Source: an uncultured Candidatus Saccharibacteria bacterium
Lineage (GTDB): Bacteria; Patescibacteriota; Minisyncoccia; Phycocordibacterales; Zambryskibacteraceae
Assembly (NCBI GenBank): GCA_964642835.1
Contig: CAZXQA010000001.1
Span: 325,387-389,386, forward strand
Direction of reading: 5' to 3'
Length of the DNA stretch: 64,000 nucleotides
Shown piece by piece: positions 44,783 through 44,951 of the stretch (position 1 is its first letter; each line of letters starts with the position of its first letter). Below the pieces are notes generated by a model. It had not been told where the DNA came from. It was given only the letters and a program-made list of their open reading frames with translations, and did no database searches. The translations under genes were made by a program, and so were the position numbers.

Positions 44783-44792
44783 GATAAAGCGG

Positions 44793-44825
44793 AAAAAGGT
44801 CACAAGCGGGTTAAGGCTTGTGACG
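44793..44825 (-). terminator. Hairpin plus U-tract in the rpoB 5' leader, 10 nt upstream of the start codon. It is a candidate attenuator.
   Basis: The minus strand has gtcacaagc-cttaaccc-gcttgtgac followed by ctttttccgctttatcATG. Confidence 0.4.
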
Positions 44826-44922
44826 AAGCTATTAAAGTGTGAGAACTGAACCCTTCCGAACGTAGTTTTCCCCTAGAAACTACTTCGTTTCAGCCATAAC
44901 TCAATCGGGTCGAAGTGAAAAG

Positions 44923-44951
44923 ATAATACTCCCTCTTTTAAGAGCTGTCAA
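44923..44951 (-). promoter_or_regulatory. Sigma70-like promoter for the rpoB-rpoC-dnaG-rpoD unit. The -35 TTGACA is at 44946-44951 and the -10 TATTAT at 44923-44928.
   Basis: The minus strand reads ctatTTGACAgctcttaaaagagggagTATTATc, with a 17-bp spacer. It gives a leader of about 130 nt. Confidence 0.5.

Follow-up and report, generated by a model that had tools for sequence, protein, structure and literature searches.

How is the synthesis of RNA polymerase regulated in bacteria with tiny genomes and few recognisable regulators? The question is raised by the segment that precedes rpoB in a stretch of 64,000 nucleotides (nt) from an uncultured Candidatus Saccharibacteria bacterium (contig CAZXQA010000001.1), hereafter called the window; all coordinates are positions in this 64-kb window, and the leader and the rpoB unit lie on its minus strand. 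Control of RNA polymerase levels is only partly understood even in Escherichia coli and is unknown in the Candidate Phyla Radiation (CPR), in which such genomes prevail and almost no non-coding RNAs have been described. The rpoB leader holds a strong promoter, a promoter-proximal hairpin (P1) whose stem covaries and whose loop is conserved among related rpoB leaders, and a terminator-like hairpin that recurs in relatives and is not followed by a second promoter. Judged from sequence comparison, it appears to be a so far undescribed RNA element conserved class-wide, and it probably sets the amount of RNA polymerase made. With moderate confidence, we regard it as a cis-regulatory, attenuator-type leader of rpoB-rpoC-dnaG-rpoD that is conserved across the class Paceibacteria and acts through a factor. 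The leader would thus provide a testable handle on the regulation of the polymerase core, the primase and the housekeeping sigma factor in an uncultured lineage.

A conserved hairpin at the 5' end of the leader

The promoter TTGACA-17-TATTAT that a preliminary reading of the window (hereafter the sequence-only reading) had reported is indeed present on the minus strand (44951..44923). Its -35 hexamer (TTGACA, 44951..44946) and -10 hexamer (TATTAT, 44928..44923) are separated by a 17-nt spacer, within the 16-18 nt of sigma-70-type promoters. With 11 of 12 consensus matches, it is the top-scoring site across the 7 kb scanned, and the pattern TTGACA-16..18-TAnnnT occurs six times in the 64-kb window, against 0.78 expected from shuffled sequences. 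Spacing places the predicted transcription start near A 44916, which is also the first base of the P1 arm. Counted from this predicted start (~44916), the leader is 134 nt long, close to the earlier estimate of roughly 130 nt, and both hairpins that the estimate included are present.

P1 (44916..44882, minus strand), which the sequence-only reading overlooked, is, in the comparison of leaders, their most conserved part. Its arms, ACUUCG (44916..44911) and CGAAGU (44887..44882), enclose a 23-nt loop containing the conserved segment GAUUGAGU-UAU-GG (44906..44894, minus strand; family consensus GAUUG(A/U)GU-NN-Y-GG-NN-G). Relatives were retrieved with the RpoB protein, yielding 80 species-level loci, all from metagenome-assembled genomes of Paceibacteria/Parcubacteria. 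The octamer GATTGAGT (window 44906..44899) is found exactly, on the sense strand and upstream of rpoB, in 43 of these 80 loci, and its one-base variants GATTGTGT, GAGTGAGT, GAATGAGT and GATTGCGT occur in about 29 further ones; counted by species, about 72 of 79 Paceibacteria loci have the P1 loop motif in sense orientation ahead of rpoB. Across leaders, a per-position table gives the octamer followed by NN-Y-GG. The stem of 5-7 base pairs (bp) varies in sequence between species, and stems at the motif are better than those at control positions (Mann-Whitney p = 1e-10).

A consensus-like promoter occupies the matching relative position in 116 of 127 non-identical related leaders, and a match of at least 10/12 lies upstream of the motif in 67% of leaders. 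The distance from the end of the -10 hexamer to the octamer has a median of 16 nt (10th-90th percentile 13.5-20; 116 leaders). Given this spacing, an arm of 5-6 nt and a linker of 2-4 nt, P1 begins with the first transcribed base or no more than a few nt from it. In the subclade formed by L093, L121, L137 and L180, the -10 hexamer lies only 9-10 nt upstream of GAUUGAGU.

Twenty-six loci served to bootstrap a covariance model of the P1 region (R1); its N-padded seed had no other use, all counts being made on real sequences, and a plain MAFFT alignment of the motif region put the stem arms out of register and was dropped. R1 matches the window once (44880..44918), at ~28 bits and at the top of that search, and with filters off the next-best score in the window is 11.4 versus 27.9 bits. 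All 31 R1 matches with E <= 0.6 are on the sense strand and upstream of rpoB. Covariance analysis across related genomes had been suggested as a check on the leader, and the P1 stem covaries strongly in two separate sets, both aligned by fitting to the model structure. For the genome set, 84% of cells are paired versus 41% in shuffles, and the covariation score is 0.97 versus 0.20, a value reached by 0 of 500 shuffles; slid registers score 0.07-0.24, and all six pairs show double changes. For 41 metagenomic rpoB leaders outside the model training, pre-selected on the loop pattern and not on the stem, the corresponding figures are 84.4% versus 42.2% paired and a score of 0.92 versus 0.20 (0/500 shuffles). 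An inner helix proposed by RNAalifold, ACUC/GAGU closing a GAUU tetraloop, can form in 39-47% of sequences, and its association is weak (p = 0.002 for all leaders, 0.06 for the unbiased set).

The motif is associated exclusively with rpoB. A gene-blind metagenome scan with the promoter-plus-loop pattern placed it directly upstream of the rpoB N-terminus in at least 60 contigs (60 of the 120 matches listed), and P1 is now known from about 130 related rpoB leaders, genomic and metagenomic. The remaining matches listed, apart from tRNA genes, are mostly inside open reading frames (ORFs) and lack a stem (mean stem score 6.7 versus 11.4). Five loci with the motif upstream of other genes (L085, at 31 bits, L173, L131, L083 and L145) were considered as possible members and rejected: unrelated or unknown proteins follow, the stems are A/U-rich or missing, no terminator is present, and good stems are about as numerous as chance would give in a set of loci pre-selected on the loop. 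No convincing instance of P1 outside rpoB was therefore found in the window or among the metagenome matches listed.

Genes for tRNA-Gln(CUG) account for about 27 of the 120 matches listed; the degenerate 13-nt pattern is matched by their acceptor end, U8 and D-arm. The segment GGGAUUGUGUAAYGGUAGCAC, present in tRNA-Gln(CUG) of many unrelated bacteria (L081, L094, L096, L110, L113, L184 and ~20 more), fits the loop consensus GAUUGWGUNNYGG exactly, a striking resemblance that we judge coincidental. Neither ARAGORN nor the Rfam tRNA model calls a tRNA in the leader. Mimicry of a tRNA was rejected, because leaders are variable where a tRNA would have U8 and A14, and there is no complement to form a D-stem.

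Downstream hairpins and the start of rpoB

The hairpin closest to rpoB is the one for which the sequence-only reading had proposed a role as terminator or attenuator. It consists of GUCACAAGC-cuuaaccc-GCUUGUGAC (44824..44799, minus strand), with 9 bp, five of them G-C, and an 8-nt loop, and the U-tract CUUUUUCC (44798..44791, minus strand) comes directly after the stem. A G+C-containing stem-loop with a U-tract directly after it is the anatomy of an intrinsic terminator. The hairpin has a predicted energy of -13 to -14 kcal/mol (-14.1) and is part of all predicted full-length folds; transcripts would be expected to end near 44793-44790. Its reported position before the start codon stands in so far as the U-run ends 10 nt before the ATG, and needs correction in so far as the stem ends 16 nt before it and the ATG occupies 44782..44780, not 44783.

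The same reading had left open a start at the GTG at 44803, which would place the hairpin inside the coding region. The rpoB gene (41582..44782, minus strand) encodes all Rpb2 domains (Pfam), and its ORF extends to 44803 if opened at this GTG, with ATG 44782 in frame and not preceded by a Shine-Dalgarno sequence. In the 80 relatives, rpoB opens at an ATG 2-22 codons upstream of a conserved KKYF motif, and the extra residues VTFFRFI added by the GTG opening have no counterpart among them. These two observations identify ATG 44782 as the start of rpoB and the hairpin as non-coding, and rule the GTG out. The public gene call for rpoB in the window (P0001) opens too early, at GTG 44803 inside the hairpin, and in L207 the annotated rpoB ATG (L207:1201) falls in the terminator loop, the conserved ATG lying 12 nt past the stem. 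With two public calls beginning within the leader, the motif offers a clean marker of the true rpoB start.

On the window sequence alone, the hairpin could be a product of chance; it rises above chance because it recurs in relatives. Terminators were detected with an RNAfold-based procedure, with dinucleotide-shuffle and antisense controls, which replaced a strict perfect-stem detector that had missed obvious hairpins and chosen the wrong motif site. Of 70 species leaders, 61 have at least one hairpin followed by a T-run in the segment from P1 to the ATG, versus 31% of shuffles and 39% of antisense sequences, and at a free energy of -9 kcal/mol or lower the proportions are 43% of leaders and 5% of controls. 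The window's own clade was enlarged by 10 contigs with RpoB 87-91% identical (Candidatus Zambryskibacteria where named). All 16 members examined carry a hairpin of -5 to -28 kcal/mol with a U-run ending 10-22 nt before the ATG. The conservation in relatives on which the attenuator idea had been made to depend is thus observed. Clade terminator stems include unrelated ones (GUCACAAGC, AGCAUAGCG, CUCGCC and a 40-nt hairpin in L205), and many share GAAGCACG/CGUGCUUC; since the stem sequence is conserved, covariation of terminator columns within the clade is uninformative. Terminator tails often read UUUUUGCGU (L013-L015, L034, L046, L051, L074; compare window 47060-47082). GCGTTT and TTTTGC are strongly enriched in leaders and may be a lineage-typical terminator signature.

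From the terminator end to the ATG, the distance has a median of 51 nt (10th and 90th percentiles 17 and 102) and is below 45 nt in 22 of 61 leaders. A promoter-like site was found between terminator and ATG in 1 of the 39 longer gaps (9% in shuffles), the 22 others of the 61 being too short. Because no second promoter follows the terminator, expression of rpoB-rpoC-dnaG-rpoD needs read-through, which fits an attenuator, since attenuation implies read-through. The attenuator idea thereby gains comparative support from the conservation of the hairpin, its non-coding position and the absence of a later promoter. Occlusion of a weak ribosome-binding site by the hairpin, the other role proposed for it, does not hold in general, as the genome is mostly devoid of Shine-Dalgarno sequences and the terminator-ATG distance is variable (17-102 nt, 10th-90th percentiles).

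The first hairpin described by the sequence-only reading, P2 (GUAGUUU-cuagggg-AAACUAC, 44883..44862, minus strand), lies between P1 and the terminator, and shares the 2 nt at its 5' end with the 3' arm of P1. Within the window's clade, 13 of 18 leaders have it, with differing stems and a loop containing GGG; a similar hairpin, GGAUUA...UAAUCC around an AGG loop, occurs in other clades. The idea that P2 is a universal second hairpin was rejected: it is not general across the class (p = 0.36) and is real in the window's clade. The heptamer ACGUUCG (44863..44857, minus strand), which follows P2 also in L207, L211, L205 and L084, pairs with the P1 3' arm CGAAGU and extends P2 into a longer helix (P2ext). 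In predicted folds, P2ext (-8.4 kcal/mol) competes with P1 (-3.9 kcal/mol), which is best only until ~45-60 nt have been transcribed, after which its 3' arm is captured by ACGUUCG. This modelled competition may act as a switch. Further downstream, a UUUAAUA box (44836..44830, minus strand) precedes the terminator stem by a few nt; the hexamer TTAATA is present in 57 of 127 leaders, versus 20.6 expected, and also in close relatives.

Proposed attenuation and its alternatives

How would such a leader act? In the factor-mediated attenuator that we favour, the strong sigma-70-type promoter would start a transcript whose first ~35 nt would fold as P1, and the near-invariant loop GAUUG(A/U)GU-NN-YGG would be the most likely docking site for a trans-acting factor. 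The downstream intrinsic terminator, which in the window's clade lies immediately before the start codon, would have to be read through for rpoB to be expressed, and a protein bound to the P1 loop would change this read-through, in the manner of processive antitermination. As an attenuator, the leader would set, and probably feed back on, RNA polymerase synthesis. We infer real termination at the hairpin, its modulation by P1 and the identity of the P1 binder, which by our guess belongs to the machinery of transcription (sigma, a Nus-type protein or the polymerase itself). Thermodynamics alone predicts termination by default, so that regulation would have to come from something acting on P1 or on the polymerase. 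Furthermore, as the P1-terminator distance varies and no conserved alternative pairing was found, a factor-mediated mechanism is favoured over a compact structure-switching riboswitch.

Processive antitermination is directed by leaders such as lambda nut boxB, HK022 put, rrn boxB-boxA, EAR and the LoaP leader hairpin, in which a hairpin with a sequence-specific loop, just past the promoter, influences terminators lying at varying distances by way of RNA polymerase or a bound factor. The rpoB leader resembles them in its promoter-proximal hairpin, its conserved loop and its terminators at variable distance. The analogy is one of layout only: by eye, the leader shows no sequence similarity to boxA or boxB.

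A bolder version, which we put forward only tentatively, makes P1 the sensor of a class-wide, CPR-specific circuit of RNA polymerase homeostasis, an RNA-based autoregulatory antitermination switch without described homologue. The reader of nascent P1 would be either the polymerase at work on the leader or a protein made from the operon itself (sigma, or a Nus-type factor), and terminator read-through, together with the synthesis of beta, beta', primase and sigma, would follow the free pool of that component.

Several results weigh against a coupling of P1 to termination, or against the strength of its parts. The P1 region is no more complementary to the terminator arms than expected (-9.49 real versus -9.48 shuffled, mean z = 0.02 over 63 pairs), and the two elements could act independently, as no conserved complementarity joins them. 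Pairing of the loop with the start-codon region was likewise tried and rejected as not general (-4.06 versus -3.99 kcal/mol). P1 of the window is weak and is outcompeted by P2ext in predicted folds, and in L093, L121, L137 and L180 transcription would start 2-3 nt before the motif, so that the 5' arm of P1 may be untranscribed. The U-tract of the window is modest, with five U following a C; terminator-like matches across the scanned region are not enriched (8 versus 7.1 expected); and a terminator-like hairpin was undetected in 9 of 70 leaders. The leader fold as a whole is not unusually stable (z = -0.83). The fitting of the covariation alignments to the model and the pre-selection of the metagenomic set, described above, count on the same side. 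Separately, the octamer's exact reverse complement, ACUCAAUC, is found in L031 and L033, 11 nt ahead of the rpoB ATG, and L030 has a version that tolerates G-U pairs.

Hairpins at the 5' end that protect mRNAs are well known, and P1 might be such a protective or processing hairpin, stabilising the long rpoBC mRNA against ribonucleases that depend on the 5' end or marking it for a ribonuclease, with the downstream hairpin a constitutive partial terminator and nothing sensed. P1 does begin essentially at the predicted transcription start in most leaders, and no alternative pairing joins it to the terminator. Lacto-rpoB, an RNA motif before rpoB in other bacteria, is mentioned in a study of RNase III targets in Streptococcus pyogenes (PMC5389636). 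Protection would need a stem only, not a 13-nt loop sequence conserved class-wide, and the stem that should protect is short and, in the window, weak. We therefore regard this explanation as possible and rather doubtful.

The recurring hairpin and its U-run might act on translation instead, either as a structured boundary with a U-rich, unstructured landing site for ribosomes behind it or as a structure limiting initiation. The short spacing in the window's clade, where a U-rich stretch follows every hairpin before the ATG, and a genome largely without Shine-Dalgarno sequences are compatible with this, and in E. coli RNA polymerase is reported to control rpoB translation, rpoBC being under transcriptional as well as translational regulation (PMC4670729). 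Class-wide, however, the hairpin-ATG distance has the median of 51 nt given above and reaches more than 100 nt, and the terminator anatomy, a stem directly followed by a T-run, is far above shuffled and antisense controls. As the main function of the element, translational control thus seems unlikely. It is compatible with the favoured attenuator, as the two are not mutually exclusive.

A riboswitch for a small molecule such as nucleoside triphosphates or an alarmone, with P1 and P2 as the aptamer and the terminator as the expression platform, would account for the order of promoter, conserved structured domain, intrinsic terminator and ORF, and for the competition of P2ext for the 3' arm of P1 in the window. 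The P1 region of the window can, in addition, pair with the terminator's 5' side (-21.1 kcal/mol, z = -2.4). P1 was accordingly considered as an antiterminator partner and rejected as not general: no antiterminator is conserved, and the value in the window is the best of 63 and fails multiple testing. As an aptamer, the element would be very simple, since the conserved part covaries strongly yet is one hairpin with ~11 fixed loop bases, P2 is clade-specific and the inner helix is weakly supported. P1 and terminator are spaced from ~17 to 100 nt or more, and the motif is tied to one gene class only. We consider a riboswitch quite improbable.

It is very improbable that promoter, P1 and terminator form a small-RNA gene of their own whose position before rpoB is incidental. 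The element does have its own strong promoter and terminator, with a predicted RNA of 100-130 nt, but the absence of a promoter between terminator and ATG means that rpoB depends on the leader promoter, and the element always adjoins rpoB and moves with it. The terminated leader RNA could additionally act in trans. Finally, an ordinary intergenic region with a promoter-like site and hairpins arising by chance, to which the unenriched terminator-like matches and the unremarkable leader fold would conform, is refuted by conservation and covariation and retains practically no probability.

Known rpoB leaders and the neighbourhood of the unit

This leader would be a variant among kinds of element already known, rpoB leader motifs and attenuators having been described in other bacteria. 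A search of the leader (44000-46000) against Rfam 15 returned no family even at E = 10, Lacto-rpoB and Rhodo-rpoB included; no gathering score was reached for the leader in the window or in the loci of 16 relatives, and no published description of an rpoB leader in Patescibacteria was found in the literature. Lacto-rpoB and Rhodo-rpoB are unrelated conserved RNA motifs that precede rpoB in Lactobacillales and Rhodobacterales, respectively, each restricted to the rpoB 5' untranslated region of one lineage, with ligand and mechanism not known; their authors proposed that diverse bacteria regulate RNA polymerase genes with distinct RNAs (PMC2864571, PMC5737381). The present leader resembles Lacto-rpoB (RF01709) and Rhodo-rpoB in its location in the rpoB 5' untranslated region and in its confinement to a lineage, and differs from them in occurring in Patescibacteria, in its unrelated structure and in the lack of a covariance-model match. 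It would be the third structurally unrelated, lineage-specific RNA before rpoB, which supports repeated evolution of such control.

In E. coli, the rplL-rpoB attenuator stops ~70% of transcripts just before rpoB, thereby decoupling and limiting beta and beta' synthesis (bioRxiv 10.1101/2021.11.05.467461; PMC4670729). Both this attenuator and the predicted one described here place an intrinsic terminator that needs read-through just upstream of rpoB. The E. coli rpoBC genes are transcribed from the rplKAJL promoters, whereas rpoB here has its own promoter, after rpsP-KH-trmD, and a conserved 5' hairpin, and there is no sequence or Rfam relationship between the two leaders. Ribosomal-protein leaders such as the L10 leader, which precedes rplJL-rpoBC, are autoregulatory, the RNA being bound by a protein that the operon encodes; a comparable feedback is only proposed here. 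Unlike in that system, no rplJL genes lie upstream (rpsP, the KH gene, trmD and a 213-codon ORF, ORF213, do so instead) and there is no match to Rfam L10_leader.

Downstream of the leader, the unit of RNA polymerase, primase and sigma genes described by the sequence-only reading holds as rpoB-rpoC-dnaG-rpoD, all on the same strand. After rpoB come rpoC (37918..41637, exact start uncertain), dnaG (36356..37954), which overlaps the end of rpoC, and rpoD (35111..36307), the last gene of the controlled unit, all on the minus strand. In the window (35111-44782), the primase-sigma pair, which E. coli keeps in a separate operon, thus stands in one unit with the genes of the polymerase core.

Upstream of the rpoB promoter lie a release-factor gene, rpsP, a KH-domain gene, trmD and ORF213. 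A terminator-like hairpin (CGGCACACC-loop-GGUGUGCCG, 44999..44975, minus strand; 9 bp, seven of them G-C, -16 kcal/mol) spans the stop codon of ORF213, and would insulate the rpoB unit from the trmD-ORF213 genes. The ORF213 product (44984-45625, minus strand; 213 amino acids) has no Pfam match and is similar to the C-terminal portion of B12-dependent ribonucleotide reductase (NCBIfam E = 7e-13); in the 80 species loci examined, no further copy was detected. TrmD lies within 3 kb upstream of rpoB in 59 of 80 loci. Between trmD and rpoB, close relatives carry inserted genes for a PGA_cap protein, a TSCPD protein and a protein of unknown kind, and L205 has a 134-amino-acid TSCPD-domain gene where the window has ORF213. 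The spacer thus seems to be an insertion hotspot, and in every locus with inserted genes the promoter and the leader remain adjacent to rpoB.

A structured leader of 134 nt is unusual in this genome, whose genes look mostly leaderless and devoid of Shine-Dalgarno sequences. No Shine-Dalgarno sequence precedes most genes of the window, and in many of them a TATAAT/TATACT-like box stands only 6-10 nt ahead of the ATG (e.g. 23425-23447, 29683-29705, 47008-47030), a pattern that suggests widespread leaderless mRNAs in the organism. Farther upstream, the longest ORF of the release-factor gene (47351-48307, minus strand), opened at a TTG, overlaps a tRNA-Thr gene (48247-48322, minus strand), so that its true start must lie further downstream.

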